NCBI GenBank assembly: GCA_001771135.1
Contig: MESW01000002.1
Location: 69,315-133,314, forward strand
DNA from: a candidate division CPR3 bacterium GWF2_35_18
GTDB lineage: Bacteria; Patescibacteriota; CPR3; GWF2-35-18
Length of the DNA stretch: 64,000 bases
Direction: 5' to 3'
Shown: positions 123 to 39,796 of the stretch, piece after piece
How the letters are laid out: every line of letters starts with the position of its first letter
Position numbering within the stretch: position 1 is the first letter of the stretch
Translations under genes and position numbers: made by a program
Notes under the pieces: generated by a model
Database searches by the model: none
The model's input: the letters and a program-made list of their open reading frames with translations, nothing else
What the model was told of the DNA's origin: nothing

Positions 123-1346
123 TTGTTTATGAGGATTTTGCAGATCAACAAATTCTTTTATCCCAAAGGGGGATCGGAAACTTATTATTTCTCTCTATGT
201 AATCTCTTAGAGAAACATAAACACGATGTGGTTCACTTTTCCATGCAGGACAATAAGAATGAAAACTCTCCGTACAAAGATTATTTTGTTTCCCATCTTA
301 ATATTACCAAGCCACAAGTTAATCTAAGCTCAATTGGGCAGATTTCTCGTTTAATTTGGTCAAATGAAGCTCAAAAAAAGCTAGAACAATTACTTACTAA
401 GGAAAAAATTGATATTGCGCATCTTCACAATATCGATCGTCATCTTACGCCATCAATCATTCCAGTCTTAAAGAAACACAAAATTCCGGTTGTAATGACA
501 TTACATGATTATAAAATTATCTGCCCCAATTCCTTACTTTTTGCAAATGGCGAAATTTGTGAAAGATGTAAAGGAAGAAAGTTTTATAGTCCATTTCCCC
601 AAAAATGTATCAAACAGTCTCGTTCTATATCATTGATTGGATCGTTTGAAGCCTATTACCATCTTTGGAGGAAGGTTTGGAAGAAAGTTGATCTTTTTAT
701 CTCGCCAAGCCAGTTTTTAAAGCAAAAAATGCAGGAATTTGGTGTTAGTCAAGAAAAAATTACTTATTTACCTCTTTTTCTTGAGGGAAAAGCAAAAAAG
801 ATTACTAAATCAACATCAAAAGGGTATTTCCTCTATTTTGGACGTTTAAGCCCGGAAAAAGGGGTAAAAACTTTAATGGAGGTATTTTCCAAGCTGCCCC
901 AAAAAACTTTAAAAATTGCCGGTTCTGGACCTCAAGAAGAGGAATTAAAAATGATTGCTAAGGATTCAAAAAACATTGAGTTTTTAGGTTTTCAAGATAA
1001 AAAAGCCATAAAAAGATTATTAACTGGCGCTAAAGGAGTAATTATTTCTTCGATCTGGTTTGAGAATGCTCCTTATACGATTATGGAGGCGATGTGGCAA
1101 GGTAAAGTGGTCTTAGGAAGTAGAGTGGGTGGAATTCCAGAACTTATTGATGATCAAAAAAGTGGTTTATTATTTAATCCTTCAAATATTCAAGACCTAA
1201 TGAGTAAAATAGAATTTCTAGAGAAATATCCCGCGAAATTAGTATCCTTTGGAAGTGAGGCTAAAAAGAGGGCAGAAGCGTTATTTAATGAAGAGGATCA
1301 TTACCAAAGATTAATTCAGATCTATCAAAAAGTAAGTTCTACTTAA
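123..1346 (+). CDS. Glycosyltransferase, GT4 family (GT-B fold); convergent with the minus-strand glycan operon
   Basis: 407-aa ORF. C-terminal GT1/GT4 donor-binding region (..FGRLSPEKG.., EFLGF, E..GIP..E) is typical of group-1 glycosyltransferases. Confidence 0.8.
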   Translation: MFMRILQINKFFYPKGGSETYYFSLCNLLEKHKHDVVHFSMQDNKNENSPYKDYFVSHLNITKPQVNLSSIGQISRLIWSNEAQKKLEQLLTKEKIDIAHLHNIDRHLTPSIIPVLKKHKIPVVMTLHDYKIICPNSLLFANGEICERCKGRKFYSPFPQKCIKQSRSISLIGSFEAYYHLWRKVWKKVDLFISPSQFLKQKMQEFGVSQEKITYLPLFLEGKAKKITKSTSKGYFLYFGRLSPEKGVKTLMEVFSKLPQKTLKIAGSGPQEEELKMIAKDSKNIEFLGFQDKKAIKRLLTGAKGVIISSIWFENAPYTIMEAMWQGKVVLGSRVGGIPELIDDQKSGLLFNPSNIQDLMSKIEFLEKYPAKLVSFGSEAKKRAEALFNEEDHYQRLIQIYQKVSST

Positions 1347-1584
1347 TTTCTTTTACGCTAATAGACTGTGAAGGGCAAAACTGCTGCGTTTCTTTGAGGA
1401 TTGAATAATCTTCATCGTCTACTTCAGTAGTTAGTTCGTACACTTTAGTTTTTTTATTTAGACTGCCACCAATTAGTTGTGATTTGGTGTCATCTCCCAT
1501 TTGCCAATATTTTGTTGTTAGAGTGGCACAAGTTCCAGTACCGATACAAGTTTCATGGTTGAAGGTAACTTTTACTTTTTTCAT
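1339..1584 (-). CDS. Small single-cluster ferredoxin-like protein (Pyrococcus-type), probable electron donor for the adjacent radical SAM enzyme
   Basis: 81 aa. Motif ETCIGTGTC...FCP, compared with the classical CIGCGTC...CP of the ferredoxin at 30806. The second Cys is replaced by Thr, as Asp replaces it in P. furiosus Fd. Lies 10 nt downstream of the rSAM gene on the same strand. Confidence 0.55.
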   Translation of the reverse strand: MKKVKVTFNHETCIGTGTCATLTTKYWQMGDDTKSQLIGGSLNKKTKVYELTTEVDDEDYSILKETQQFCPSQSISVKEIK

Positions 1585-1594
1585 AAGATACTCC

Positions 1595-2608
1595 TTATTT
1601 TAGTACTTTTTGTCCCAAGTGTACCTTGAGTTTATTTTTTATTGCCCAAAGTAAAACATTCCATTTATTTGCTTCAAAAGAGCCGCGTAGGGTACAGATC
1701 ATCCATGCCTCATAAGGATTATTTTTACAGGTGGTTTGTCTGGCTTTCTCAGCTTCCTGCGAATTGACGATATCGTTGATATTTTGGTTTTTAATATTAC
1801 CAATTTCATGATTAACATAATCGGCCGGATAAACTTGTCCTTTAGGGGATACAAATACAGAGTCTTTTCCTGAGCCTTCCGGTAAAACTCTTTCGTTATA
1901 GCGGAAAAATCTCCAGGCACCATAGTCAAAATAGGCTCTTGCCCAACGTTTTACAGAGAAAGATTTAAGCTCTTTATCAATAAGATATTCAAGTTGAGAG
2001 CGGAGATTATCAAAATTTTTGATTTTATTGTCGGTTTTTTTGAAGAAGATTTCCGAGTTTTGAGCGAGAGCTAGAGAAAGCTCAATTTTCAAATCGCGGG
2101 TTAAGTTATAAATTCTTTCTGCTTCTCCAGGGTTTTCATCCAGAATCGTGTGTCCAATACCCAGATTCTTGACGCCAATTTCTTGTAATGCCTTGATAGT
2201 GGCAATACATTTATCAAAAGCGTGTGGAATTCCGCGGGTTTGTTCATGCTTTTCGTACATACCATCGATAGAAACACGGATACCAATCTGAGGATAAAAG
2301 GTTAGAATTTCTTCAACGCGGCGACTAATGAAATCAGTCAAAAAACCGTTTGTAGAGATGATTATTTGAGCCTTTGGTGAATATTTTCTGATTTGACGGA
2401 CTATTTCTACAATATCGGGTCGTAAAAAAGGTTCTCCTCCGGTAACGTTCACGTATTTTGCCGTTGAAGGAAGATTTTTTAAGTCTTGCGTAGTAAACTC
2501 TCCTTCATGATCACGCTCTTTCCAAATATTACACATGATACAGCGGGAGTTGCATTTATAGGTGATAGCTAAAACGACATCCACAACTTCATATTGTTGA
2601 TTTGACAT
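1595..2608 (-). CDS. Radical SAM enzyme (CxxxCxxC, TNG motif, C-terminal extra Cys pair; possibly SPASM/twitch-like) inside a glycan locus
   Basis: 337 aa. N-terminal YKCNSRCIMCNIW matches the radical-SAM Cx3Cx2C motif. Also has GGEP and ISTNGFL motifs and a C-terminal CKNNPYEAWMIC. Confidence 0.85.
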   Translation of the reverse strand: MSNQQYEVVDVVLAITYKCNSRCIMCNIWKERDHEGEFTTQDLKNLPSTAKYVNVTGGEPFLRPDIVEIVRQIRKYSPKAQIIISTNGFLTDFISRRVEEILTFYPQIGIRVSIDGMYEKHEQTRGIPHAFDKCIATIKALQEIGVKNLGIGHTILDENPGEAERIYNLTRDLKIELSLALAQNSEIFFKKTDNKIKNFDNLRSQLEYLIDKELKSFSVKRWARAYFDYGAWRFFRYNERVLPEGSGKDSVFVSPKGQVYPADYVNHEIGNIKNQNINDIVNSQEAEKARQTTCKNNPYEAWMICTLRGSFEANKWNVLLWAIKNKLKVHLGQKVLK

Positions 2609-2752
2609 TATTAATTTCTCCTTTCTTTTTTATACCTGAATTATTACAATTTGTAAATTACGATATTTTAATTCTGGTTATACCTAAACTTCATTTTTTT
2701 ATTCAGGAAGTTTGGTGTATCTCATGGATTGCATCTTATAGGCAATATTGTT

Positions 2753-3949
2753 TTAAATTCTATTTACAGAAAAAAGCTCAAAAGATGGTCCAAATGAATA
2801 TTCAGAAGGTTTTTTATTGTTATTGTGATAATAAATTTTGAAAGTTTTCCTGACTATTTTATCCCAATGATATTGTTTTACAATCTCTTTTTGTTTTTCT
2901 AATCCCAATTTTTTGATTTTTCTTTCATGAAAAGTTGCGTATTTTAATTTTTTCTTCAGATCAAGGACATTCTTATTTTCAAAATTAAAACTATTCTTTC
3001 CAGTTACTTCAAGGTTTGCTGGAATATCTGAAGTTAAAACCGGTATTCCATAAGAGATTGCTTCCAGCACTGTTAGAGCCATACCTTCAGATTCTGAAGG
3101 TTGGATGTATAAATAAGCATTACTGAAAAGTTCGGTTAGAATTTTCCCTGTTTGATAACCGGTAAAAACGATGTTCGCGTTACCATAAGAGAGTGCTTTC
3201 AGCTCTTGGACATAATCATCCGTAAAAGCGCTGTCACCAACAATAACTAACTTTTTATCCTTTTTAGATACTTTTGGGTATAATTTTTGATAGGCCTCAA
3301 TTAGATAATGTATTCCTTTGTGTCTAACGAGCCTTCCTACTGTGAGGAAATAGGAATTCTTTTTTAATCCAAATTTATCTAAAAATAAGGCTTTAACATC
3401 AGGTTCTGTATAGTTTATTCCATTCGGGATAAAGGTGACTTTTTTGTGATACCTTTTTTCTAAATAGTGCTGCATATTTTGTGAAACCACAATTACTTCA
3501 TGGGGAAAAGTTAGACAAGCAATTTCACCTAGCTTCAGCATTGTTCTTGCAAAAAATCCCCATTTTTGATGTTCATAGTCAGCACAATGGTAGGTTGCAA
3601 TTATTCTTGTTTTTGGCTTGAAAATTCTAGGAATAAAAGAAAGAAGTGTTGGACCAATTCCTTGGTAATGAATTACATCATAATCTTTTGTTAGTGCATG
3701 CAGAGTAGAGAATAGTACATGCGTTATGGTATCTAAATGTTTAGTTTTAACTGAGGGAATAAAAACTTGTTTTAAATTTTGATTTTTTATTTTTAATTTC
3801 TGACTTTTTTCTACATACCATTTACGACAATAAATATAAACCTCATTTTCAGGGTTTTTTGTGAGTCTTTTGCCTAGCTCTTCTACATGACGTTCAACAC
3901 CACCATAAGAAGCAGGTATTCCTTTTTGTCCAATATAAGCAATTTTCAT
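2753..3949 (-). CDS. Glycosyltransferase (DUF1972-like N-terminus + GT4 C-terminus)
   Basis: 398 aa. N-terminus MKIAYIGQKGIPASYGGVERHVEELG, C-terminus E(A)ISYGIPVL. Paralog of the next gene. Confidence 0.8.
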   Translation of the reverse strand: MKIAYIGQKGIPASYGGVERHVEELGKRLTKNPENEVYIYCRKWYVEKSQKLKIKNQNLKQVFIPSVKTKHLDTITHVLFSTLHALTKDYDVIHYQGIGPTLLSFIPRIFKPKTRIIATYHCADYEHQKWGFFARTMLKLGEIACLTFPHEVIVVSQNMQHYLEKRYHKKVTFIPNGINYTEPDVKALFLDKFGLKKNSYFLTVGRLVRHKGIHYLIEAYQKLYPKVSKKDKKLVIVGDSAFTDDYVQELKALSYGNANIVFTGYQTGKILTELFSNAYLYIQPSESEGMALTVLEAISYGIPVLTSDIPANLEVTGKNSFNFENKNVLDLKKKLKYATFHERKIKKLGLEKQKEIVKQYHWDKIVRKTFKIYYHNNNKKPSEYSFGPSFELFSVNRI

Positions 3950-4236
3950 GACTATTTTTAGGAAGGAAAAGCGAATGGACAGCCTCTTTTCCTTAATCTT
4001 CTCCTTTTATTCTTCTCTCTATTATTGATGTTTTTTAAGGTTATTATGCTTTATAATTGTCGTAACCTATAGAAAACGTTCAAGTATATCTTATAATTAG
4101 TGTGTTGTCAAACCTATAGTTATAAAATACTCCTTATGAAATAAGCTTCATTTTTTGCCATAAAATAGCTTTAGATTGCAATAGTTTGAAATTTAATTGT
4201 GAGTAATAGAAATTAGAATGCTGATATGTAGGGAAT

Positions 4237-5472
4237 TTAGAGCATATTTGTATAGTATTGCTCAGTAAGATCTGCTATTTTATCCCAATGGTGAGTTGCG
4301 AATTCTTTAGGATGTAGATTTTTGGGATTATGATGATAAAGATTTTCATAAAACTCATCAGTCTTTTCTACTATTTGATCCCAAGAATACTTCTTTCGTA
4401 CATATAGACGAGCTTTTTCTCCGGTTTCTTTAATTAATTTAGGTTTGTGTAATAAGTTCACAAGTTTCTCTTTTAAATCGTCCACATTTCCTACTTTAAA
4501 TGAAAAACCAAAATCAGAAAGCGGCTCTAGGTTTTCAGGGATGTTTGAAGCAAGTACGCAATTGCTGTAGGCCATGGCTTCCAGAACTGCAATAGGAAGA
4601 CCTTCTGCTGCTGAAGGATGAACATATAGGTAAGTATTAGAAAAAAGCTCCGCGAGAGTTTCTCCCGTTTGAAATCCTGTAAAGATGATATTGGGATCTT
4701 CCTTTGCAAGGTTCTTTAAGTAATCCTCATATTGTCCACTTCCATCTGCTTTTCCTCCGACAATGACTAGTTTTGGATTTGTTTTATTTGGTTTTGGAAA
4801 TAAGAGTTGATATGCCTTGATCAAAGTATGAATATTTTTATGTTTTACTAATCTTGCTACTGTTAAGATATATTTATCTTTTTCTAAACCCCAATCTTTA
4901 ATGTTTTTAGCTTTTTCTTTAGTGAATAGGGGAACTCCATTTGGAATATAGGTAATCTTTTTGTGGTATTTTTCTCTTACATATTCTTGAATAGTTTTAC
5001 TAACGGCTATTGTTCCATTGGGTATTTTGACGCAGACATGTTCTCCAAATTTTAAATAGCTACGGGCTAAAAAACTCCATTTTTGGTGTTCGTAATCTTT
5101 GCAATGGAATGTTGCTACAATCCGACTTTTGGTTTTTAGTAACTTAGGGATAAATAGTAGGGAAGAAGGACCAATTCCATGATAATGTATTACATCAGCC
5201 TTTCGAGTTAAAACATTCATTGTTGCCGTAAAAGTACTTGTTATCGCATCAAGGTTTTTAGTATTTATTGAAGGATTATTTAATAATTTTATCTTTTGAT
5301 ATGTTTTGGGAACTTTTTTGTTTTGAAAAACCAAGTTTTGATACCAAGGGCGGCAGTACACATAGACTTCATGTCCTTTTTTAGCAAGTCGAGAAGCTAG
5401 TTGCTCAACATGATGTTCTACGCCTCCGTAGGAAGCAGGAATTCCCTTTTGTCCAATAAAATAGATTCGCAT
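4237..5472 (-). CDS. Glycosyltransferase (DUF1972-like + GT4), tandem paralog of 2753-3949
   Basis: 411 aa. N-terminus MRIYFIGQKGIPASYGGVEHHVEQL. Collinear similarity to the previous protein throughout. Confidence 0.8.
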   Translation of the reverse strand: MRIYFIGQKGIPASYGGVEHHVEQLASRLAKKGHEVYVYCRPWYQNLVFQNKKVPKTYQKIKLLNNPSINTKNLDAITSTFTATMNVLTRKADVIHYHGIGPSSLLFIPKLLKTKSRIVATFHCKDYEHQKWSFLARSYLKFGEHVCVKIPNGTIAVSKTIQEYVREKYHKKITYIPNGVPLFTKEKAKNIKDWGLEKDKYILTVARLVKHKNIHTLIKAYQLLFPKPNKTNPKLVIVGGKADGSGQYEDYLKNLAKEDPNIIFTGFQTGETLAELFSNTYLYVHPSAAEGLPIAVLEAMAYSNCVLASNIPENLEPLSDFGFSFKVGNVDDLKEKLVNLLHKPKLIKETGEKARLYVRKKYSWDQIVEKTDEFYENLYHHNPKNLHPKEFATHHWDKIADLTEQYYTNML

Positions 5473-5492
5473 GGGATATAAATGATTACTTC

Positions 5493-6848
5493 TTAATTTT
5501 TCGTTTTGTGTTCACTGTATCGGTAATAATGACTCTTTTTATCACCATTCGGTTTTTTGTTATTGAGAATTGTCCCAATAATCTCTCCACCTACCTTTTT
5601 GATTGCTTCAACGGCCTTTTGTGCATTAGTACGAGTGGTCTTCCCGGATTCAACTACTAATATAGCTCCATCAACCATGGAAGAAATAATTGCGGCATCA
5701 GTAATTAAACCAATTGGTGGGGTGTCGAAAATAATAGTATGGAATTTAGCTTCCTTTAGTCTTTCAATTAAATGATACATTTTGGTTGAACCTAACCATT
5801 CTGCGGGATTAGGGAGAAAAGATCCAGAGGTAATTAAAGATAATCCATTTATTTGAGTTGATTCCCAAATGGTTTTAGGGAGATCATTTTTGGTTAAGAC
5901 ATCAGTTAATCCAAAGTTATTTTCAACTTTAAAAATATCATGTTGCGTAGGACGGTGTAAATCGGCATCAATTAAAATGGTTTTATAACCAGCTTGAGCC
6001 ATAATTACCGCTAGATTAGCCGTAATTTGCGACTTTCCTTCAGATGGTCCGGAAGAGGTAACAACAAATGCTTTTGTGGGTTTGTCAGGTTGTGAAAATT
6101 GTACATTAGTTCTTATTTCTCTAAAGGATTCCACAATTGGGTCATGTGGATCGGTTGTGGTTATTAAATTTCCTGCACGACGGTGGACTTCTTTGATATA
6201 AGAAACCGTTCCCAGATGAGGCAGGTTTAGATATTCTTTTATATCAAATTCATCTTTGAATGTATCATCCAAATATTCAATCAGGAAAATGATTCCAATG
6301 ATTGAAATGAAACTGAGAATAAAAGCTAAAGAGATTGAGAGTGCTTTTTTAGGGGAATCTGGTTTTTCTGATGGAAAAGCCTTTTCTACAGTTGCAATTG
6401 TATTATAACTTTGTTTATCACCTTGAAGCTTTATTACCTCTTCAGAAAATTTTTGAGCGATAGTATCAGCAATCTGTGCCGCTATTTCAGCATCTTTTGC
6501 TTTTACGGATATTGTGATAAGTTGAGTGTCTCTAACTAATTGGACGTCAACTTTTTTTAGAAGTTCTTCATAATCTGTATCAAGATTTACTTCTTTTATT
6601 ACAGACTCTAATACGGTTCTTTTAGAAATAACCTCAGCATATGTTTTTGCTAGTCTTTCGGATGTCATAATATCGTTTAGGTTAATTGTTTCGGTACTAG
6701 CAAGGTTAACCATGACAGTTGTAGAAGATTTGTAGGTAGGAGGAATCATGAAAACTAAAGCTGTTGTTGTCGCCGTAGCGAAAATCACAAATAGGACGAT
6801 GATGAATAAATATCGTTTAATGATAAAGAGGTAATTTTTAATATCCAT
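5493..6848 (-). CDS. Fused Wzc-like polysaccharide co-polymerase / bacterial tyrosine (BY) autokinase
   Basis: 451 aa. Two TM segments flank a Wzz-like periplasmic domain. Cytoplasmic Walker A VVTSSGPSEGKS, Walker A' ILIDADLHRP, DTPP, Walker B, and a C-terminal Tyr cluster (SHYYRYSEH). Confidence 0.8.
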   Translation of the reverse strand: MDIKNYLFIIKRYLFIIVLFVIFATATTTALVFMIPPTYKSSTTVMVNLASTETINLNDIMTSERLAKTYAEVISKRTVLESVIKEVNLDTDYEELLKKVDVQLVRDTQLITISVKAKDAEIAAQIADTIAQKFSEEVIKLQGDKQSYNTIATVEKAFPSEKPDSPKKALSISLAFILSFISIIGIIFLIEYLDDTFKDEFDIKEYLNLPHLGTVSYIKEVHRRAGNLITTTDPHDPIVESFREIRTNVQFSQPDKPTKAFVVTSSGPSEGKSQITANLAVIMAQAGYKTILIDADLHRPTQHDIFKVENNFGLTDVLTKNDLPKTIWESTQINGLSLITSGSFLPNPAEWLGSTKMYHLIERLKEAKFHTIIFDTPPIGLITDAAIISSMVDGAILVVESGKTTRTNAQKAVEAIKKVGGEIIGTILNNKKPNGDKKSHYYRYSEHKTKN

Positions 6849-6863
6849 GGCAGTAAAATGTTT

Positions 6864-7571
6864 TTAAAATGAACTATCATTTAAAATATTAGCACAGTTA
6901 GTTTGAGACAGCAATTGCCATTTTGTTAAGCCAATCAAAGATTTAATTTTAGACTCAACTTTGGTTAACGGATAAAAACGGTTTTGACTATTATGAGAAT
7001 CACTTCCAATTAGATCATAGTAACCATTTTTTAAGAATAATTCAGCCTGGTTTGTAATTTTTCTGTTATTTTCGATTAAAGAAACACTAGTTAATTGAAA
7101 GAGAACACCGAGTGATTTAATTTTTTTCACCATATCTAAATTGTATAAACAAGGATACCTTTCTGGATGGGCTAAAATTGGGCGAAGGTTATTTTTTAAA
7201 AGATATTCAAGCTGTGAGATTGTTTCTGTGGTTATGTCCGGATAAACATCTACAAGTAGATATCTGGAATTATTCAGGCTTTGAAATTGTTCTAATGGTT
7301 TTTGTTCAAAAATATAATCAGTTAATCTTACCTCTGATCCAGGATATACTTTAATATCCCATTTAAGTTCTTTTAGAGCATTGTTCAAGATCTTTATTTT
7401 ATCTTGAATTTCCTTTTTTGTGGGTTCCCAATAACCTTTCCAGAAGTGTGGTGTTGTAATAATATTTTTATAACCCGTTTGAACAAAAGCTTTTGCTAGA
7501 CTTAAACTTTCTGGAAAGTCTTGCGGGCCATCATCTATTTGAGGCAGTATGTGAACGTGAGTTTCAATCAT
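6864..7571 (-). CDS. CpsB/YwqE-type PHP-family protein-tyrosine phosphatase
   Basis: 235 aa. N-terminus MIETHVHILPQIDDGP..TPHF and downstream His/Asp metal ligands typical of Mn-dependent CpsB phosphatases. Confidence 0.8.
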   Translation of the reverse strand: MIETHVHILPQIDDGPQDFPESLSLAKAFVQTGYKNIITTPHFWKGYWEPTKKEIQDKIKILNNALKELKWDIKVYPGSEVRLTDYIFEQKPLEQFQSLNNSRYLLVDVYPDITTETISQLEYLLKNNLRPILAHPERYPCLYNLDMVKKIKSLGVLFQLTSVSLIENNRKITNQAELFLKNGYYDLIGSDSHNSQNRFYPLTKVESKIKSLIGLTKWQLLSQTNCANILNDSSF

Positions 7572-7587: not shown

Positions 7588-8268
7588 CTATTCTTCCATT
7601 TTCGCAGTTATAATCAGTCTTTTCAAGCTTGTTCCAGGAGGATAGCAGGTTTGAAGAGTGATTACCGGTTCGGCAAAATCTCTTGTTAAAGGTTCGATAT
7701 TAGTTGGATCAACAATGTCTTTACTATCAACGATATAGTTGTATCTGGTTCCTTTATAAAAGGTGACAATAGAATCTCCTTTTTCTAGTTGATGGAGTAG
7801 AGTAAAGACAGCATTGTATTTACTAATATTAAGAGGATCAACAGTAGAATGTGCAAATAGATATGCGTTTCCGATTTGCCCGGGGTATTTAGTTCCTTTT
7901 GCATGAGCGACTCCATTTTCCAGTGCTTGCCAATAACCTTCTCTAGTTGAAATATCAATATCAGGCTGAAAGTCAGTATTTAAATTGATCTTTTCGATTA
8001 TTATTCCAAATTCGGTTGATACCGGAGTTACTGACAAGGGTTTTTCTATTGGAATTTTGACAGAATTTGTTGACTCATCGGAGTTTAAATTTGATGATTC
8101 TTGATTATTACTTTTGAATAAGCGATGTAGCTGGTACTCAATTTCGGGTTTAATAATTGGGAAAAATATAAGGAAAAGATAGATAACACCACTAATTATT
8201 AAGAAGTTTGAGATATAAATAAGATATTTTCGATTTAGTTTTAGTTTTGGTTTTTTTTGTTTATTCAT
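7588..8268 (-). CDS. Sortase-family transpeptidase
   Basis: 226 aa. Has an N-terminal TM anchor, conserved His (GNAYLFAHS), catalytic TLxTC (ITLQTCYPP) and downstream Arg (KRLIITA). Confidence 0.7.
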   Translation of the reverse strand: MNKQKKPKLKLNRKYLIYISNFLIISGVIYLFLIFFPIIKPEIEYQLHRLFKSNNQESSNLNSDESTNSVKIPIEKPLSVTPVSTEFGIIIEKINLNTDFQPDIDISTREGYWQALENGVAHAKGTKYPGQIGNAYLFAHSTVDPLNISKYNAVFTLLHQLEKGDSIVTFYKGTRYNYIVDSKDIVDPTNIEPLTRDFAEPVITLQTCYPPGTSLKRLIITAKMEE

Positions 8269-8404
8269 GATTTTATAACCACATACATTTTTATTATTTT
8301 AAATAAGTTGGATATATAATATATACCTGAATTTAGTTCATTTGTAAAAAGAGAGATACTTAAGTAATGAGTAATAGTATATAAAATTTGGTAATAGTCT
8401 AATT

Positions 8405-8432
8405 TTGCAAATCAAATTAATTCGGGTATAAT
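8405..8432 (+). promoter_or_regulatory. Sigma70-like promoter (TTGCAA-16-TATAAT) oriented toward the tRNA-Ile(UAU) region
   Basis: TTGCAA at 8405-8410 and TATAAT at 8427-8432 in an AT-rich intergenic region. Confidence 0.3.
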
Positions 8433-8620
8433 CAAAAAATGAGCTAGCATTATTCTATTAATTTATGTTATACCCAAATAACTCTAAAATGGGTAATACT
8501 CAAATGTATTTGTTGTAAATCTGAGTTTTTTAATATAAATGATTTTTATAGATTAGTAGAAGAATAAAAATCAAGTGGTGCATAGCTTAAATGGGAGAGG
8601 ACTATGTTTATATTGCAAGT

Positions 8621-8660
8621 GGGTGCATAGATTAAGTGGTAGAGCACCAATCTTATATGG
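8621..8660 (+). pseudogene. Truncated 5'-half copy of tRNA-Ile(UAU) (acceptor/D-arm/anticodon arm only)
   Basis: GGGTGCATAGATTAAGTGGTAGAGCACCAATCTTATA closely matches the 5' 37 nt of the intact tRNA at 8666, then diverges. A more degenerate copy lies at about 8577-8600. Confidence 0.5.
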
Positions 8661-8665
8661 TGACT

Positions 8666-8740
8666 GGGCGCATAGCTCAGTGGTAGAGCACCAATCTTAT
8701 AAGTTGGCCGTCCGTGGTTCGAATCCACGTGCGCCCAGCC
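8666..8740 (+). tRNA. tRNA-Ile, anticodon UAU (reads AUA)
   Basis: Manual fold: acceptor GGGCGCA/TGCGCCC, D-arm GCTC-AGTGGTA-GAGC, anticodon stem CCAAT/GTTGG with loop CTTATAA (anticodon TAT), T-arm CGTGG-TTCGAAT-CCACG. Confidence 0.75.
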
Positions 8741-8767
8741 ACCATTAATTTAGAATAAATTTTAAAT

Positions 8768-8806
8768 ATAAGTTGGCCGTCCGTGGTTCGAATCCACGTG
8801 CGCCCA
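8768..8806 (+). repeat. Exact 39-nt direct repeat of the 3' half of tRNA-Ile(UAU) (anticodon stem to acceptor end); att-like remnant
   Basis: ATAAGTTGGCCGTCCGTGGTTCGAATCCACGTGCGCCCA at 8768-8806 is identical to 8699-8737. Confidence 0.7.
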
Positions 8807-8928
8807 CTTGCAATTCACTGAATGTTTTTTATCTCAGTATTCTTTTTTAATTTCAACATATCAACATATATTGAATTCAGATAGTAATTAATATACTATG
8901 GATATAGTTAAGCTTTTCTTTTCTAATT

Positions 8929-11900: not shown

Positions 11901-12510
11901 CTCTGAAGATCCAAACTTCATCGGAGCTTCATGGGAAACATATACAACAACCAAAGAGTGGACATTTTCTGAGGGAGATGGAATTAAGGTAATATATATA
12001 AAGTATCGTGACTCCGCTCAGAATGAAAGCTTAATATACAGCTCCAGTATCATACTAGATACAGTAACCACTATAGATCTTACTAAGCTGGGAGGTAATA
12101 CCTTTAATACAGATATAACTGATTGGGAGATAGAAGATAATAAACCTAGCTTTGAAGGAACAGGGGAGGTAGATGCAGAGGTTGTAGTTACCATCAATTC
12201 TGATTCCATAATAGGAACTTCCATTGTAGATAGTGGTGGGAATTGGATCTGTACTCCAGAAACAGAGATTCCTGTTGGAAAGCATGAGGTAACGATAACC
12301 TCTACCGATCTAGCATCTAATACCGATACTCTCTCATTCAATCTTTCCGTACTTGGAGCTACTGATACACAAGAACAAATAGAAGGACCTGAAGAGCTAC
12401 CTAATACCGGAGTACAAACAATCATTATCTTCTTCATGGTAATAGCACTATTTTGGACAGCTACAAATCTGAGAATCATTGATAAACTTAGAAGTTTTAT
12501 GAAGAGATAA
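8929..12510 (+). CDS. Large LPXTG-anchored surface protein: signal peptide, about 14 NHL-type beta-propeller repeats, 3 tandem ~115-aa Ig-like repeats, Ig-like stalk, LPNTG sortase signal
   Basis: 1193 aa. N-terminal signal peptide. Repeated N(N/H)RVL(I/V)YN..IP..N..AD(V/I)V(I/V)GQPNMTSNTANNGG units. Three MMISED..GF.G.SWE.Y.T.K.W....GDGIKTVY.KY.D repeats. C-terminal LPNTG, then a hydrophobic segment and a basic tail (RIIDKLRSFMKR). Confidence 0.85.
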   Translation: MKKLSRHFCFLLLSFSLLFNSSFFQAPNLTYAINQTNTPATVVLGQNGFDACDRAPNYGDMRRGFSTPIQTLIVNNKLMVSDYANSRIFIYNTIPDSYLDVPDVVIGQNNLCNNLINKYQGPTIVAADTLYYPYYIYSDGTKLFVADYLNNRVLIYNEIPTSNNASADVVIGQPNMTSNTANNGGLGANTLYRPLGVYSDNTKLYIADTSNNRVLVYNEIPTSNNASADVVIGQPNMTSNTANNGGRAANRLNAPYAITVNNGKIYISDLSNNRVLIFNSIPTSNDASADIVVGQTNMTNGAANQGVAVASNTLSSPIYTQIANNKLYITDRGNHRVLVYNSIPIVNNTSADLVIGQPNMTSNTANNGGISSQTLNNPTGLSVTTNKMIITDSSNHRLLIFNTLPLTNNPEADIVIGQKDFTHNLSYMGAVNSQSLSAGWNTAFSDGQRLYVVDYANNRVLIYNSIPTDSNTPADVVIGQPDMTSNIANNGGLSAKSLNHPVEVFAYQNKLYISDYSNSRVLIFNTIPSTNFAEADIVIGQPNMTSNTANNGGLGANTLYYPGSTYTNGEKLIIADYNNHRVLIYNTIPTNNNASADVVVGQPNMTTRSINYGGLSASSLYYPYVVSSNGSNLVVTDYSNSRILIYNSIPTSNLSSADVVVGQPNMTSNGCNNGGINANTVCNPWYAYTDGIRLFIADTANYRILIYNSIPTNNFTNADILIGQLDFTHKDINQNGDASQYTLTAPYSVITDNHNLIVYDAMNYRVLFYPLGPQNTGVTTDSYSNSQNIDLTLSADDAKEMMISEDSGFTGVSWESFSTSKDFTLSTIEGSKTVYVKMRDYANYEGDTLSTTLTYDATSPTGSLTINSGATTTNSRGVTLTLSADDALSGVVSMMISEDSGFNGASWENYDTSKDWILTSGDGIKTVYAKYKDVAGNISERVSGNIEMDTNIPEGEIIIVSPTENAYVNSETVTLTLEGTDELTEVFEMMISEDPNFIGASWETYTTTKEWTFSEGDGIKVIYIKYRDSAQNESLIYSSSIILDTVTTIDLTKLGGNTFNTDITDWEIEDNKPSFEGTGEVDAEVVVTINSDSIIGTSIVDSGGNWICTPETEIPVGKHEVTITSTDLASNTDTLSFNLSVLGATDTQEQIEGPEELPNTGVQTIIIFFMVIALFWTATNLRIIDKLRSFMKR
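9397..9668 (+). repeat. Near-identical intragenic tandem repeat (unit about 183 bp, 61 codons) inside the LPXTG gene
   Basis: 9397-9485 and 9580-9668 are about 97% identical at DNA level. More diverged copies with the same period occur through about 10950. Confidence 0.6.
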
Positions 12511-29556: not shown

Positions 29557-30762
29557 GTGACAATTAAAATCGTAAAAAAACTATTAATTATTGTTATCAC
29601 AATATCTTTGTTCTCAGTTTTGATAAACACAAAGGTGCAAAGTGCTGATGATTCTTGTAGCAATCCTACCGTTTGTACAATTGAAGATGATCAGAATAAT
29701 AATCAAGATGGAAATTTTGATCAATATCGTCCGCAAGATGAATCAGGAAAGGTATGTGTCTACTATTTTTGGGGAGCAGGATGTAAGGCTTGTGCTTCTG
29801 TAAGTCCATTTGTTGAAGAATTGACCTCTCAAAAGAAAGATAAAGTAGAATTAAAATCACTGGAAGTTTATTATAATGAAGAAAATAGGAAGCTACTTTC
29901 TGATTTTAATAAACGATATCAGGTTGAAGATTCTGGTGTCCCAGCAGTTTTTGTTGGTGATACTTATTTGGGCGGAGCAGATGCCATCAAAAATAATTTA
30001 AGCGAAAAAATAGACTATTTTTATGAAAACAAAACCGCTTGTCCTCTAGATTACAATCGGATTCAAGGCAGTACGGAAGAAACAAAAAAGTTGGAATTAA
30101 CTCTACCAGCTATTCTTCTTGGAGCCGCAGCAGATAGTGTTAACCCTTGTGCTTTTGCCGTTCTTATATTTTTACTGGTTTATCTCATGGCGGTTAAAGA
30201 TAAGAAGGCAATGTTTAAAGTGGGATTGACTTATATTATTGTCGTTTTTGTCGTTTATTTTGTTTCCGGTTTGGGAATTTTACAGCTGGCCAAATATTTA
30301 ACAGCGACATCTGTGGTAATGAAAATTGTAGCCTCTATTTCAATTGTGGCAGGACTAATAAATATTAAAGATTTCTTCTGGTATGGTAAGGGGATTAGTC
30401 TACATATTCCCGAAAGTAAAAAACCGCTAATCGAAAGATATGTCAAAAAGGCTACTTTTCCAGCAACAATCGTTTTAGGATTTTTAGTTTCTGCATTTGA
30501 ATTACCCTGCACGGGAGGTGTTTATTTAGCGATTCTAGGAATCCTAGCTCAAAGTAGCGATAAATTGTTATCAATTTTTTATCTTTTAATTTATAATGTA
30601 ATATTCGTTTCGCCTTTACTTATTATTTTGCTTGTAGTTTATAAAGGGTTAGATCCGGATAAGGTTAATTCCTGGCGTCTTGATAAAAGAAAATGGTTGC
30701 GATTATTTATGGGACTTATAATGTTAATTTTAGGTTTCGGTTTATTTTTTGGCCTTTTTTAA
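29557..30762 (+). CDS. Thiol:disulfide oxidoreductase fusion: exported thioredoxin-like domain (CKAC) + CcdA/DsbD-type transmembrane electron-transfer domain
   Basis: Signal peptide. YFWGAGCKAC CxxC motif. The TM domain has the paired VNPCAF and ELPCTGG motifs characteristic of CcdA/DsbD-beta. Confidence 0.7.
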   Translation: MTIKIVKKLLIIVITISLFSVLINTKVQSADDSCSNPTVCTIEDDQNNNQDGNFDQYRPQDESGKVCVYYFWGAGCKACASVSPFVEELTSQKKDKVELKSLEVYYNEENRKLLSDFNKRYQVEDSGVPAVFVGDTYLGGADAIKNNLSEKIDYFYENKTACPLDYNRIQGSTEETKKLELTLPAILLGAAADSVNPCAFAVLIFLLVYLMAVKDKKAMFKVGLTYIIVVFVVYFVSGLGILQLAKYLTATSVVMKIVASISIVAGLINIKDFFWYGKGISLHIPESKKPLIERYVKKATFPATIVLGFLVSAFELPCTGGVYLAILGILAQSSDKLLSIFYLLIYNVIFVSPLLIILLVVYKGLDPDKVNSWRLDKRKWLRLFMGLIMLILGFGLFFGLF

Positions 30763-30778: not shown

Positions 30779-30997
<219 letters not shown>

Positions 30998-30999
30998 AA

Positions 31000-31479
31000 A
31001 TGGTTGATGAACAAAATAATAATAAAATCGTAATTTCAGTTTTAGGAGTTATCTTCGATACTTCAGGAAAAGTATTGCTTTCTTTACGAAGCGATAAGGA
31101 GATTCCTCTGGCTGATTTTAAATGGGAAATTCCCGGAGGGAAAATTGACTTTGGAGAAACAGCGACTGAATGTATTGTCCGTGAAATTCGCGAAGAGACT
31201 GGACTCATTGTAAATCCAGTTAGATTGGTCGATTGTATTTGGAGTAATATTTGGGATACAAATGCCGGTCATAAAATTCAAGCAATTTTAATTCCCTTCC
31301 TTTGCGAAGTAGACAGCGGAGTTACTAAGCCGGGAAACCATGAAGTTCTTGAATTAAAATGGTTCTCGATGAAGGAGATTGATAGTTTGAATACATTACC
31401 AGGGGTTAAGGAAATAGTAAGAACGGCCTATTTTACTAAAAAAGGAGTTACATATGGAAAATCAAAAGATGGTTTATGA
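31000..31479 (+). CDS. NUDIX hydrolase
   Basis: Nudix box GGKIDFGETATECIVREIREETGL. Confidence 0.85.
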   Translation: MVDEQNNNKIVISVLGVIFDTSGKVLLSLRSDKEIPLADFKWEIPGGKIDFGETATECIVREIREETGLIVNPVRLVDCIWSNIWDTNAGHKIQAILIPFLCEVDSGVTKPGNHEVLELKWFSMKEIDSLNTLPGVKEIVRTAYFTKKGVTYGKSKDGL

Positions 31480-32413
31480 TTTATTGATAATTGGGGCTGG
31501 TCCAGCTGGATTTACAGCTTCAATTTACGCTTCAAGGTATAAGGTAAGTAACCTCGTCATTGGTCCTGAATTGGGAGGGACAATAGCGAAAGCGCATAAG
31601 GTTGAAAACTATCCCGGATTTTTATCAATTCCCGGTTTTGAATTGGGTCAAAAAATGAGTGAGCAGGTAAAAAATTTGGGATCAGAAATCAAACTAGAAA
31701 CAGTGGCGCATATTAATAAAAATGATCTTTTTGAATTAACTACAAATAATGGAAACAAATATTACTCAAAAATGATAATTATAGCTTCCGGTACAGAAAG
31801 AAGGAAACTGAACATTTTGGGTGAAGATAAGTATTTAGGACGCGGAATCTCGTATTGTACAAATTGTGATGCTCCATTTTTCCGTAATAAAAAAGTAGCT
31901 GTAGTTGGAGGGGGTGATGCCGCAATTACAGGAGCGCTACATCTTAACGAAATTGCAAGTGAGATTTATCTGATTTATCGACGGAAAAAAGAAGATTTAA
32001 GGGCTGAACCAGCTTGGTTAGAGAGTCTTGCACAATCAAAGGTTATTGGTATTTATGAAACTAATCCGATCGAGGTTTTAGGAGATGAAACTAAAGTCAC
32101 CGGTTTGAAGTTGGATAAGCCTTTTAAGGGTCAAGAAGTTCTTGGTTTAGACGGGGTTTTTGTCGAGATCGGTGCGGTTCCTGTTTCTAAGATTATTTCT
32201 CCACTAGGAGTTGTGGTGGATGAGTCTGGTTTCATTAAAGTAGATGCTTCTATGCAGACTAATATTGAGGGGATTTATGCAGCAGGAGATATTACAGAAC
32301 AATCAAAAGTGTTGCAACAGGTGATAACCGCTGAAGCTCAAGGGGCAATTGCGGCAGCCTCCGTCTTTAGAAAAATTAAAGGAAAAGTTGATGCTCCCAA
32401 ACAATGGGGGTAA
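31454..32413 (+). CDS. trxB: Thioredoxin-disulfide reductase
   Basis: FAD motif LIIGAGPAGFTA, redox-active CTNCDAPFF, NAD(P) motif VVGGGDAA. Confidence 0.85.
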   Translation: MENQKMVYDLLIIGAGPAGFTASIYASRYKVSNLVIGPELGGTIAKAHKVENYPGFLSIPGFELGQKMSEQVKNLGSEIKLETVAHINKNDLFELTTNNGNKYYSKMIIIASGTERRKLNILGEDKYLGRGISYCTNCDAPFFRNKKVAVVGGGDAAITGALHLNEIASEIYLIYRRKKEDLRAEPAWLESLAQSKVIGIYETNPIEVLGDETKVTGLKLDKPFKGQEVLGLDGVFVEIGAVPVSKIISPLGVVVDESGFIKVDASMQTNIEGIYAAGDITEQSKVLQQVITAEAQGAIAAASVFRKIKGKVDAPKQWG

Positions 32414-34573: not shown

Positions 34574-34774
34574 TACCCATGCTTCTCGTATGAGAAGTTT
34601 CTTTTTTCGTTCTTTAACATTCAAGAAGTGGTAGGAATTTAGGCGAAGTGTTGTCTAAATTCTTAGTACAAGACTTCGTCAATTTTTTTTGTAATCATTG
34701 TTAAACCAAGTAATTGGTTTAACTCGTTTACTCTTTATGATATTTCCTAAATTTATTTAGGATTTGTCATATTT

Positions 34775-36276
<1,502 letters not shown>

Positions 36277-36406: not shown

Positions 36407-36459
36407 TTTATGATATATTCAATTCGTTTAAAAATTGGAGTTTCGCAGCTTGTTAATTT

Positions 36460-36657: not shown

Positions 36658-36678
36658 CGTTTGTGTTATACTTTTTTT

Positions 36679-37140
36679 ATGAATAAAAAGATTCAAATTC
36701 CAGGAATTGATTATATCGGTATAACGACTCCTTTCTACTGTAATGATGGTAAGGGTAATTTTCTTTTACATCGCAGAAGTAAAAATTGCCGTGATGAACA
36801 GAGAAGATGGGATTTGGGTTCGGGTCAATTAGAGTTTGGGTTAACTCCAGAGCAAAACGTTCTTAAAGAGGTTTTTGAAGAATATGGTTGTAGTGGAACT
36901 ATTCAAAGTCAACTTCCGCCACACTCTATTTTTCGAAAGCATCAAGGGGTAGATACTCACTGGTTGGCAATTCCTTTTTTTGTACAAGTTGATCCACAAA
37001 AAGTAAAGATTAGTGAACCCACTAAAATTGATGAGATTGCCTGGTTTACTTTAGATAATTTACCAACTCCTTTACATTCTGGTTTTTCCTATACTCTAAA
37101 GACTTACAAACAGTATTTTGAAAAGTATAAAAAGCGATAA
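36679..37140 (+). CDS. NUDIX-like hydrolase (hypothetical), located between 16S and 23S
   Basis: Nudix-like GSGQLEFGLTPEQNVLKEVFEEYGC. ATG at 36679, whereas the track start 36661 is TTG. Confidence 0.6.
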   Translation: MNKKIQIPGIDYIGITTPFYCNDGKGNFLLHRRSKNCRDEQRRWDLGSGQLEFGLTPEQNVLKEVFEEYGCSGTIQSQLPPHSIFRKHQGVDTHWLAIPFFVQVDPQKVKISEPTKIDEIAWFTLDNLPTPLHSGFSYTLKTYKQYFEKYKKR

Positions 37141-37707
37141 TTATACTAATGTAGCAGTCTCTATTATCTGGTTGCCAAAACGCCAAAAATGGGCATTCGT
37201 TTTTCCTTTTTTTATTTTGATTTTCCGACTCTTTTTCTCTATAGTTAAATATTGGAGATTAACGACATTTAATGTCTTATTATTACTATAATTTCAGTTC
37301 TAAAAAACTCCGCTCAAAAAGGAGAAAAAGATACTTTATTTCGGCTCTTTACTCATTTTTTACAATTTTCTTTTTATTTTCAATATTTTTACCCTATTTT
37401 AAATACAATAACGTAGCTACATATGTAAGTGGAACAACTTCTACAAATACGACCTAGGACTTGTGAAATTAGTCGACGTTAAACCTCTTTAGCTTAGTAA
37501 TCCGACGATAATTACCAATAAATACGGATACTATAGTTTCTAGTGAAAAAGGGGAAGAATCAGATTGTGATTGAGTCAAAAAAGATGAAAAGACTAAAGC
37601 AGTCTATCGATCTGAAGTGATTACAGTATAGACTAACAATGGACATCTTGGAAAAAATATCAAAATCTAGTATTATTATAGTAATAATCAAAGGAGGTGA
37701 TAAATAA

Positions 37708-38217
37708 ATGGAAGAAGTAAAAACAGAAACTCCCGTAACCACAACAGCTTATGAACATGCTGGTTTTGGTGTTAGATTGGTTGCGGCGATTATAGACGGA
37801 ATTTTAATCAGCGTTGTTACTGGAATTATAAACGGAATTTTTGGAACTGCTTTAGGTGCAGGAACTTCATTAATGAGTACCGATGTGATGACAGATGAAG
37901 CTGCTGCTGGTCTTATCGCCACGGCAATTGGAGGATCATTTATTCTCATGTTTGTAAATATGGCGATCTCCTGGGGTTATTATATTGTTATGACCGGAGC
38001 AAAAGGAGCGACAATTGGAAAAATGATTATGAAGCTTGAAGTCGTCGATGAAAATTATCAAAAAATTTCTTATGGTAAAGCGGCTTTGCGCGAAATTGTC
38101 GGGAAATTTATTTCCAGTCTAGTATTTTGTTTAGGATATATATGGGTTTTATTTGATGATAAAAAACAAGGTTGGCACGATAAAATTGCCAAAACTTACG
38201 TCATCAAAAAAAGTTAA
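37708..38217 (+). CDS. RDD-family membrane protein
   Basis: RDD motif: R..A.IID.. (GVRLVAAIIDGIL), later D and D (WHDKIA). RBS AAAGGAGGTGA. Confidence 0.8.
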   Translation: MEEVKTETPVTTTAYEHAGFGVRLVAAIIDGILISVVTGIINGIFGTALGAGTSLMSTDVMTDEAAAGLIATAIGGSFILMFVNMAISWGYYIVMTGAKGATIGKMIMKLEVVDENYQKISYGKAALREIVGKFISSLVFCLGYIWVLFDDKKQGWHDKIAKTYVIKKS

Positions 38218-38280
38218 GGTTTAAAGAGAGTGGGTAAGTAGATTCATCTACTTACCCCTCCTTTAATAAAAAGAGGAAAA

Positions 38281-39255
38281 ATGAACATCGATTTTCGCAA
38301 AATAATTAAACGATCTTGGGAAATTATTAAAAAGAATAAAATACTCTGGATTTTAGGAATGCTTCTTGGTGGAGCTAGTGTGGGAAGTGGCGGAGGGGGG
38401 AGTGGATATGACTTTGACAGTTCTGATGTCGATAAAATCAAAAACTCCGATTTTGTAGATGGGGATCAACTAACTTCAGCGATAGATTCTTTTTTAACTT
38501 CTCTTTCTGAAGTTATTGCCAAAATTCCACCATATATTTGGATACTTATCATAGTGACTTTAATTAGCGTTATCATCCTCGGAATTATTGTAAAAATCTA
38601 TTTGAATAACTGGGCAGAGGGAGCTGTTATTGGTCTTGTGAATGGAGCAGAAAAAGGAGAGGAAATTAGTTTTCGTAAAGGCGCAATTTATGGAATTCGT
38701 TTTGCTAAGAGGTTAGTTTTAATTTCAATAGTTCCCGGTTTAATCTATTTTTTAATTTTAATCGCTTTTGGTTTGCTTATTGTTTTCAGCCTGCTTTTCC
38801 CCGTACCGGTACTGAATATTATCTTAGCAATTATTTTTGGCTTCATTCTAATATTTTTTATGCTTATAGGATCTTTATTTTTATCTCTGCTAAAGATAAT
38901 TTCTATCCGAATCGTGGTTGTCGAAGATAAAGATTATCTAGAAGCATATAAGGAAGCTTTTACTTTTGTGAAAAAAGCCTTCCTTGAAATTATCATTCAA
39001 GGAGTTATCAATTATAGTTTTGGTTGTGGTTTTGGTTGTCTCTATTTGATTTTTTTAATCGTAATTATTGGAATTATTATTTTAGGATTTTTTATTCACG
39101 TTGGGTTAGGTTTACCACTTGCTCTTTTAGGTTTACTTATTTTAATTGTTAGTGGAGTATTCGTAGGAGCTTTTAATTCCTTTAAATCTGCAAACTGGAC
39201 GCTACTGTACAAACAGGTTAGAGAAAAACAGAAGGAGGGGAACAATGCAAAGTAG
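38281..39255 (+). CDS. Polytopic membrane protein with N-terminal Gly-rich/acidic segment (hypothetical)
   Basis: 324 aa. GGASVGSGGGGSGYDFDSSD, then about 6 TM helices. Confidence 0.5.
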   Translation: MNIDFRKIIKRSWEIIKKNKILWILGMLLGGASVGSGGGGSGYDFDSSDVDKIKNSDFVDGDQLTSAIDSFLTSLSEVIAKIPPYIWILIIVTLISVIILGIIVKIYLNNWAEGAVIGLVNGAEKGEEISFRKGAIYGIRFAKRLVLISIVPGLIYFLILIAFGLLIVFSLLFPVPVLNIILAIIFGFILIFFMLIGSLFLSLLKIISIRIVVVEDKDYLEAYKEAFTFVKKAFLEIIIQGVINYSFGCGFGCLYLIFLIVIIGIIILGFFIHVGLGLPLALLGLLILIVSGVFVGAFNSFKSANWTLLYKQVREKQKEGNNAK

Positions 39256-39796
39256 TATTAAGCAATCTCAATATCAAAACGCAGGGTTTATTGTTCGGTT
39301 TTTGGCTTTTCTCGTAGACCATTTGATTCTTTGGCTCCCTTTTTTATTAATTAGTCTTTTTATCACTTTAGGTAGTAGTTCTACATCAGATCTTTTAGTG
39401 AAATTAGGAATATTAACCCTTTATTATCTTATTATTCAGGAAATTTTATGGCTTTTCTATCAAACACTAACGACTTCCTATTGGGGCGGGTCTCTGGGAA
39501 AAGAGGCTTTTAACCTCACGATTCTGAACGAAAAAGGAGAAAAACTAAGTTTGAGGGATTCACTTTTTCGTTACGTAATTGGTTATACGGTTTCAGGACT
39601 AGTTTTTGGCTTAGGGTTTTTATGGATTATCAAAGATGATCAAATGAGAGCTTGGCATGATCTGCTTATTGGTTCAAAAGTTGTTGTTAAGGAAAAAGAC
39701 TACATTTTGGGAGTTTTATCTCTTTTGGGATTAGTGCTTGTTTCTAGTATTTTTATCTTTATTTTGGTATTTAAAATCGTCTCTTTCATGAACTAG
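39245..39796 (+). CDS. RDD-family membrane protein (second copy)
   Basis: GFIVRFLAFLVDHLILW...AWHDLLIG. Overlaps the previous gene by 11 nt. Confidence 0.75.
   Translation: MQSSIKQSQYQNAGFIVRFLAFLVDHLILWLPFLLISLFITLGSSSTSDLLVKLGILTLYYLIIQEILWLFYQTLTTSYWGGSLGKEAFNLTILNEKGEKLSLRDSLFRYVIGYTVSGLVFGLGFLWIIKDDQMRAWHDLLIGSKVVVKEKDYILGVLSLLGLVLVSSIFIFILVFKIVSFMN

Follow-up and report, generated by a model that had tools for sequence, protein, structure and literature searches.

The stretch of DNA analysed here, 64,000 nucleotides of candidate division CPR3 bacterium GWF2_35_18 (contig MESW01000002.1, positions 69,315-133,314; referred to as the window throughout), encodes a radical S-adenosylmethionine (SAM) enzyme of 337 amino acids and, directly downstream of it, an 81-residue protein that has the features of a small, single-cluster ferredoxin. 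In the reading that we favour, with a probability of roughly 0.55, the radical SAM enzyme acts on a sugar of the repeat unit that is assembled by the surrounding glycan locus, while the ferredoxin from the same operon most likely serves as its electron donor. This reading draws on the gene neighbourhoods of a large enzyme family, on the class and the cysteine pattern of the enzyme, on the identity of the small protein and on the recurrence of the gene pair in a second lineage.

The radical SAM family is strongly tied to Wzy-type surface-polysaccharide loci. Of 61 loci, 30 encode a family 4 glycosyltransferase (GT4) immediately downstream of the radical SAM gene and another 10 a Wzy_C protein; upstream, the neighbours in 56 loci include GT4 enzymes (13), Wzy_C proteins (11), family 2 glycosyltransferases (GT2; 6) and methyltransferases (4). 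The partner GT4 of the window is 66% identical to its counterpart in the related locus L081 and 40% identical (E 1e-104) to that of locus L001, and its relationship to the remaining GT4 enzymes of the window is only remote. Loci L081-L085 likewise have the radical SAM gene convergent with the orthologous GT4 gene, together with more GT4 genes and Wzy_C. In some family members the connection is physical: positions 5125-6990 of locus L004 encode a GT2-radical SAM fusion, confirmed by Pfam, whose N-terminal part is 47% identical to the stand-alone GT2 of L001. Open reading frames of 535-636 amino acids with an extra region ahead of the radical SAM part are found in L004, L005, L007, L008, L012 and L052, and the N-terminal parts of L005, L007, L008 and L012 are 32-44% identical to the same GT2, as against only 11% for L052. 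Homologues at 35% identity also lie within polysaccharide loci of the cultured bacteria Segatella copri DSM 18205 (WP_050758626.1) and Pseudobutyrivibrio xylanivorans MA3014 (WP_151625889.1), where both are annotated just as 'radical SAM protein'. The preliminary description of this DNA, made from the sequence, had proposed a sugar or glycan role for the enzyme, and a glycan context that is conserved across the family supports this proposal.

The neighbours show further features of their own. A class I SAM-dependent methyltransferase is encoded 13 nucleotides upstream of the radical SAM gene in L081 (positions 325-1152), whose radical SAM protein is a 69%-identical relative, and methyltransferase genes neighbour the radical SAM gene in about six other loci. 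The partner GT4 of the window carries at residues 134-162 a CPx11CxxCx(10-12)C insert that is zinc-ribbon-like in appearance; the insert is shared by its nearest orthologues, the GT4 enzymes of L081, L082, L001, L006-L008, L010, L021 and L023, and more distant partner GT4 enzymes do without it.

Turning to the enzyme itself, the cluster motif C19-N-S-R-C23-I-M-C26 and the TNG motif (within ISTNGF) noticed in the preliminary description are both present, as is a GGEPF SAM-binding motif at residues 57-61. The spacing of nine residues given there for two C-terminal cysteines is in fact ten (between C294 and C305), and only C305 is conserved in the family. The protein passes the Pfam cut-offs for Radical_SAM (PF04055; 69.8 bits against 29.5, E 4e-19) and SPASM (PF13186; 31.1 bits against 21.5, E 2.8e-7, residues 247-295). 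Its AlphaFold2 model (mean predicted local distance difference test score, pLDDT, 92.9) includes a hairpin (E250-253/E258-260). A profile search of the PDB returned SkfB, CteB, BlsE and BtrN, and the best Foldseek matches of the model were SkfB, BlsE (template modelling scores, TM, of 0.67/0.69), anSME, CteB, SuiB and MoaA. Judged by domain profiles and by the predicted fold, the enzyme is of the SPASM/twitch type and not B12-, MoaA- or QueE-like. No B12-binding or methyltransferase domain was detected by Pfam, the radical SAM core beginning at about residue 10, which leaves the earlier idea of C-methylation without support. None of the NCBIfam models reaches its cut-off: the highest-scoring ones (PTO1314, StsB, NirJ and AhbD) give about 70 bits against cut-offs of 306-650, with AhbD at 70.5 against 500, NirJ at 65-70 against 500-650 and MoaA at 57-61 against 284-325; the QueE model is not among the 25 best matches, and the BlsE model (TIGR04466) scores 46.4 bits against 400 over residues 14-146 only. 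These scores, far under the cut-offs, set the enzyme apart from housekeeping families of the MoaA or QueE kind.

The family to which this enzyme belongs is large, has no curated model and includes no characterised member that we could find. It comprises more than 1100 homologues, mostly from Patescibacteria, to which a genome scan added Krumholzibacteria, Planctomycetota, Chloroflexota, Acidobacteriota, Thermoplasmata and others. A literature search on radical SAM enzymes in O-antigen, capsule, exopolysaccharide and Patescibacteria glycan loci returned no characterised family member. An entry identical to the window protein exists for candidate division CPR3 bacterium GWF2_35_18, annotated as a hypothetical protein.

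Cysteine patterns, counted in an alignment of 187 family members, point to an unusual history of the twitch region. Four auxiliary-cluster cysteines, one before the hairpin, one after it and two in a CxxxC motif, occur together in 41 members and are all absent from 130, the window protein included, which has E, A, N and A at these positions. Counted as four ligands plus Cys305 (window residues 244, 262, 297, 301 and 305), the patterns are xxxxC in 127 members, CCCCC in 36 and CCCCx in 5, so that 68% of members have, like the window protein (xxxxC), lost all four ligand cysteines and kept Cys305. We conclude from this alignment that a single twitch-type auxiliary cluster was present in the ancestral enzyme and was lost outright on the Patescibacteria branch, and that Cys305 is no cluster ligand. 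An interpretation of C294 and C305 as the remnant of a cluster was considered and rejected, as C294 is not conserved and C305 is independent of the four ligand cysteines. The methionine of the CxxxCxMC motif (Met25 in the window protein) is found in 176 of the 187 members; the same unusual methionine in the cluster motif was remarked on for BlsE (PMC3715490).

The small protein downstream was first noticed as an 81-residue reading frame with a CIGTGTC…CP motif, and both the frame and the motif (C13-I-G-T16-G-T-C19 … C70-P71) stand on inspection of the sequence. C13, C19 and C70 are its only cysteines. It matches Fer4_15 of Pfam with 32 bits (gathering score 22.4), and its best sequence match in the PDB is the ferredoxin of Pyrococcus furiosus (E 7e-6), which aligns end to end and places Asp14 opposite Thr16. 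A structure model built with 62 relatives as input (pLDDT 96.2) has the ferredoxin fold and superimposes best on the [Fe3S4] form of the P. furiosus ferredoxin (1SIZ; TM 0.84, root mean square deviation 1.7 Å), followed by the [3Fe-4S] ferredoxins of M. tuberculosis and R. palustris. C13, C19, C70 and P71 are invariant among 40 relatives and likewise among 62. The assignment to P. furiosus-type single-cluster ferredoxins made in the preliminary description is therefore borne out by family profile, sequence and fold alike, and its three cysteines and Thr16 suggest that the protein is of the [3Fe-4S] type.

Thr16 itself had been singled out as an analogue of the aspartate in P. furiosus. The positional equivalence holds, but the variant is not special. 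An exhaustive HMMER search (a word-indexed search returned only the protein itself and one fragment) yielded 147 cluster representatives of the ferredoxin subfamily, in which the second-ligand position is occupied by Ala in 68, Cys in 54, Thr in 7, Val in 5 and Ser in 3, most of the non-Cys variants having exactly three cysteines. Since the subfamily mostly has Ala at this position and ferredoxins with a CXXTXXC(X)nCP motif have already been published, namely Fdx2 of M. marinum (PMC6237146), Thr16 is hardly exotic: it is a minor variant of a common three-cysteine ferredoxin type and no new ligand arrangement. In the M. marinum series, every ferredoxin examined held a [3Fe-4S] cluster, the variants with Thr, Ser, His or Asn among them, and the potentials ranged from -340 mV or lower (the Ser variant) up to +230 mV (PMC6237146). 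The window ferredoxin has the fold and ligand spacing of both the P. furiosus protein and M. marinum Fdx2. Unlike the former, it has an insert of about 12 residues, which is a trait of its subfamily, and lacks the disulfide cysteines; unlike the latter, its partner is a radical SAM enzyme instead of a P450. Most members of the subfamily come from DPANN archaea and from bacteria with reduced genomes.

That the two genes belong together is suggested first of all by their arrangement. The intergenic gap measures exactly 10 nucleotides (1585..1594), as stated in the preliminary description, and an AAGGAG Shine-Dalgarno sequence 6 nucleotides ahead of the ferredoxin ATG is overlapped by the TAA stop codon of the radical SAM gene, a layout that is typical of co-transcribed and translationally coupled genes. 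On its other side, the ferredoxin gene overlaps the convergent partner GT4 gene tail to tail by 8 nucleotides. A scan of positions 1000-4400 for promoters and terminators found such sites to be no more numerous than in shuffled controls.

The ferredoxin gene is conserved and under purifying selection, yet in a narrow clade only. Compared with a near strain of about 90% nucleotide identity (L098), its first 47 codons show 15.5 synonymous against 3.5 non-synonymous differences, and the ratio of non-synonymous to synonymous rates is 0.037, against 0.055 for the adjoining tail of the radical SAM gene. Positions 1-639 of L098 match the window through the 3′ end of the radical SAM gene and about the first 48 ferredoxin codons and then diverge abruptly; the break stems either from a chimera of the assembly or from a rearrangement, which would cut the ferredoxin of this strain short. 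More telling is a second lineage (L094/L095) in which identity to the window proteins is 79% for the radical SAM C-terminus, 48% for the ferredoxin, whose CIGTGTC motif is the same, and 38% for the convergent GT4. Here, the order radical SAM-ferredoxin-GT4 is the same as in the window, and the ferredoxin start overlaps the end of the radical SAM gene by 14 nucleotides. A search for such pairs elsewhere thus turned up this one lineage, although the pairing does not extend through the radical SAM family. Accordingly, the earlier notion of a 'dedicated' ferredoxin survives in part: the three-gene arrangement recurs outside the CPR3 strain, but it is missing from relatives of the enzyme at 69% and 51% identity and from 80 more loci.

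Several observations weigh against our reading of the pair, and they should be considered together. In L081, with a radical SAM protein 69% identical to that of the window, and in L082-L085 (51%), the radical SAM gene abuts the orthologous GT4 gene and leaves no room for a ferredoxin, and none was found in 80 further genome loci when these were searched with phmmer against six-frame open reading frames; a scan of all 85 of these loci for CxxXxxC…CP gave only chance matches in non-coding frames. As most relatives of the enzyme thus lack the ferredoxin, the enzyme has no general need for a dedicated donor. Seen from the other partner, three of six inspected contexts of ferredoxin relatives (L087, L088 and L096) adjoin SufBD, SufS or NifU genes, and no radical SAM gene stands beside the relatives in any of the six. 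The cluster type raises a further difficulty: the potentials usual for [3Fe-4S] ferredoxins are about -200 to -85 mV, compared with -340 mV or lower for the Ser variant (PMC6237146), and by analogy such a usually high potential would be poor for reducing a radical SAM cluster. Cys305, to which we return below, is Gly in five cluster-bearing metagenomic members and in both cultured homologues and is therefore no universal catalytic residue. Lastly, with no member of the family characterised, its substrate and chemistry are inferred.

In a rival reading, the ferredoxin would be a general housekeeping carrier, for instance in Fe-S cluster biogenesis, that has come to lie between the radical SAM and GT4 genes by chance and is not specifically linked to the enzyme. 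The neighbouring SufBD, SufS and NifU genes of its relatives, the unrelated contexts of two others (L086 and L090) and the absence of the pairing from almost the whole radical SAM family all speak for such a carrier. Against it, the 10-nucleotide gap with its stop codon overlapping the Shine-Dalgarno sequence points to co-expression, the gene order has been kept in a lineage whose ferredoxin has diverged to 48% identity, and general needs could be covered by the canonical four-cysteine ferredoxin encoded elsewhere in the window. We consider a chance placement unlikely, though it deserves to be taken seriously; the protein is better described as a small ferredoxin of a general kind that was recruited into the radical SAM operon in this lineage specifically.

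A different role within the pair is conceivable, in which the ferredoxin would substitute in trans for the lost twitch cluster and accept the electron of the substrate radical, making the two proteins a split sugar dehydrogenase akin to BtrN. The window enzyme indeed lacks the four auxiliary ligand cysteines that 41 relatives have, and [3Fe-4S] potentials fit an acceptor better than a donor. However, among about 130 cluster-less members sampled (a sample outside which the ferredoxin-bearing contigs L094, L095 and L098 fall), only the window protein and its 100%-identical entry P0001 have a neighbouring ferredoxin. Cluster-less and cluster-bearing members moreover share the same contexts, so nothing suggests that they catalyse different reactions. 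We hold such a split enzyme to be highly doubtful.

It is very improbable that the enzyme is a housekeeping MoaA-, QueE- or AhbD/NirJ-like haem or cofactor maturase found in a glycan locus by chance: some sources do label homologues 'Fe-coproporphyrin III synthase', and the weak NirJ, AhbD and MoaA matches of 57-70 bits point the same way, but these scores are 4- to 9-fold under the curated cut-offs, glycan surroundings are found again in dozens of phyla and there are fusions to a GT2. The alternative raised in the preliminary description, that the Cys/Thr-rich 81-residue product is itself a ribosomal peptide substrate of the enzyme, can be dismissed, for although the best PDB sequence matches of the enzyme are the peptide maturases SkfB and CteB and the small reading frame lies directly downstream, the product has a confidently predicted ferredoxin fold with invariant C…C…CP, the enzyme starts its core too early for an N-terminal recognition (RRE) domain, which it lacks, no small reading frame stands beside the radical SAM gene in the 85 related loci and the family's neighbours are glycosyltransferases.

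Returning to the favoured reading, in which the ferredoxin is the donor of a sugar-modifying enzyme, a working mechanism can be outlined. Both here, in the CPR3 lineage, and in a single sister lineage, the gene for a three-cysteine ferredoxin was inserted between the radical SAM gene and that of its GT4 partner. The ferredoxin, translationally coupled to the enzyme, would supply the electron that reduces the SAM-binding cluster for reductive cleavage of SAM, and the hydroxyl residue at its variable position may keep the potential low, as for the Ser variant. With this single cluster, the enzyme would then use a 5′-deoxyadenosyl radical to act on one of the sugars of the glycan repeat unit, which may be lipid-linked or nucleotide-linked. 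The glycosyltransferase fusions, together with an absence of conserved genes for nucleotide sugars in the vicinity, hint at a lipid-linked or transferase-bound stage. Since most members do without the auxiliary cluster although their genomic context is the same, an internal electron sink is probably not needed for the reaction, and the absence of a need for a built-in acceptor argues against dehydrogenation of the BtrN type. A BtrN-like reaction, one of the options named in the preliminary description, is thus weakened by the loss of all four auxiliary-cluster cysteines from the window enzyme. This leaves two candidates, the first being an epimerisation in which Cys305 would return the hydrogen atom, as in NeoN or EpeE, and the second a decarboxylation of a uronic acid as by BlsE. 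Of the conceivable chemistries, these two sugar reactions seem the most likely, and the present observations do not separate them.

Known systems resemble the window enzyme in different respects. BlsE, the cytosylglucuronate decarboxylase of the blasticidin S pathway (PDB 7VOB), is likewise a radical SAM enzyme acting on a sugar, shares the CxxxCxMC motif and is the best mutual structural match, C-terminal domain included; its sequence similarity is, however, confined to the N-terminal core (profile positions 17-170), and it belongs to a nucleoside-antibiotic cluster, whereas the window enzyme belongs to a Wzy-type glycan locus. The twitch sugar dehydrogenases BtrN and SpeY have the same combination of a radical SAM core and a twitch domain, and the four cysteines of the cluster-bearing relatives resemble the twitch arrangement. 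The window enzyme, by contrast, lacks the four ligand cysteines and has a TM of 0.32-0.5 and low overall sequence similarity to them. SkfB, CteB, anSME and SuiB give the best sequence and Foldseek E-values and have SxDG…HDxxRG and the SPASM/twitch β-hairpin in common with the window enzyme, which in turn differs from them in lacking a peptide-recognition domain, auxiliary clusters and a conserved precursor peptide and in its glycan context. Radical SAM epimerases with a cysteine as hydrogen donor are known for sugars (NeoN, AviX12) and for peptides (PoyD, EpeE/YydG). In keeping with such a donor, the non-ligand Cys305 appears to have survived the loss of the auxiliary cluster, and EpeE is among the fold matches; nevertheless, no specific sequence relationship to NeoN, AviX12, PoyD or EpeE is detectable, and some members have Gly in place of Cys305.

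The coordinates of the locus and of the second ferredoxin are collected in Table 1.

Table 1. Genes and sequence elements of the glycan locus, with the second ferredoxin of the window for comparison
Feature	Position in window	Strand	Basis
Radical SAM enzyme, 337 amino acids	1595..2608	-	Open reading frame list; Pfam Radical_SAM and SPASM
Single-cluster ferredoxin, 81 amino acids, CIGTGTC…CP, three cysteines	1339..1584	-	Open reading frame list; Pfam Fer4_15
TAA stop of radical SAM gene overlapping AAGGAG of ferredoxin gene	1585..1597	-	Direct sequence reading
GT4 glycosyltransferase, partner of the radical SAM enzyme	123..1346	+	Pfam Glycos_transf_1 and Glyco_transf_4
GT4 with N-terminal DUF1972, upstream of radical SAM gene in the same gene string	2753..3949	-	Pfam
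Second GT4/DUF1972 glycosyltransferase	4237..5472	-	Pfam
Wzz chain-length determinant fused to P-loop (BY-kinase-like) ATPase	5493..6848	-	Pfam Wzz and ParA/CbiA/AAA_31
CpsB/CapC-type phosphatase of capsule loci	6864..7571	-	Pfam CpsB_CapC, E 5.5e-41
Sortase, upstream of radical SAM gene on the same strand	7588..8268	-
Comparator ferredoxin, canonical four-Cys P. furiosus/Tm type, outside the glycan locus	30806..30997	+	Open reading frame list; pairwise alignment

Taken by their predicted products, these genes make up a Gram-positive-style capsule or surface-glycan locus. At its border (positions 7588-12510), the sortase gene adjoins that of a 1193-residue surface protein with NHL-like repeats, which ends in LPNTG, a hydrophobic stretch and a basic tail; to judge from these features, the two look like a sortase-substrate pair.

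The second ferredoxin, which had been named as a comparator, does exist and is 43% identical to the small protein over 37 residues; it reads …SPC…SCP and carries two extra cysteines of the P. furiosus/Tm type. Its gene is preceded by that of a membrane protein with a thioredoxin-like N-terminus (29557..30762) and followed by that of a predicted NUDIX-type hydrolase (31000..31479, from sequence only) and of a thioredoxin reductase with a CTNC active site (31454..32413). The last of these was considered as a ferredoxin-NADP reductase and rejected, as it has kept the CxxC active site (CTNC) of true thioredoxin reductases.

Further along the window, the rRNA operon (34773-43444) contains protein-coding genes within its 16S-23S spacer. 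It is arranged as 16S (34773-36275), tRNA-Cys, tRNA-Ile(GAT), open reading frames, tRNA-Ala (40011), 23S (40213-43191) and 5S (43328-43444), the spacer of about 3.4 kb holding at least five open reading frames (36661..39796) between tRNA-Ile(GAT) and tRNA-Ala. Another tRNA-Ile gene at 8665-8741 has the anticodon TAT, an uncommon bacterial way of reading AUA, and tRNA-Met(CAT) is encoded twice, at 14299 and 14510. Positions 23210-24997 encode an ATP-dependent DNA ligase of archaeal/eukaryotic type with N, M and C domains, here in a bacterial genome.

While the ferredoxin is ordinary on its own, it provides in vitro studies of the enzyme, whose source organism is uncultivated, with a candidate reductant that is ready to use. 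More notable is the radical SAM family itself, which is uncharacterised, widespread, bound to glycan loci, partly fused to glycosyltransferases and has lost its auxiliary cluster wholesale. The joint loss of four ligands in most members, with the genomic context unchanged, makes the family a natural experiment on the role of the twitch auxiliary cluster. In a broader reading, which we regard as clearly unlikely in its entirety, it would constitute an unrecognised class of radical SAM enzymes that edit surface-polysaccharide sugars by epimerisation or decarboxylation at a lipid-linked stage, together with a dedicated GT4, and that are widespread among Patescibacteria, further phyla of bacteria (several), gut anaerobes and some archaea; the CPR3 form would consist of two components, the inserted [3Fe-4S] ferredoxin having taken over in trans the redox role that the twitch cluster had before its loss. 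That the family performs radical sugar editing is suggested by its orthologous GT4 partner, by the GT2 fusions and by its homologues in cultivable gut bacteria. To our knowledge, almost all known examples of sugar chemistry by radical SAM enzymes come from antibiotic pathways (BtrN, DesII, BlsE and NeoN). A family of more than 1100 members within Wzy-type loci would suggest that the radical editing of sugars is a common step in the synthesis of cell-envelope glycans.

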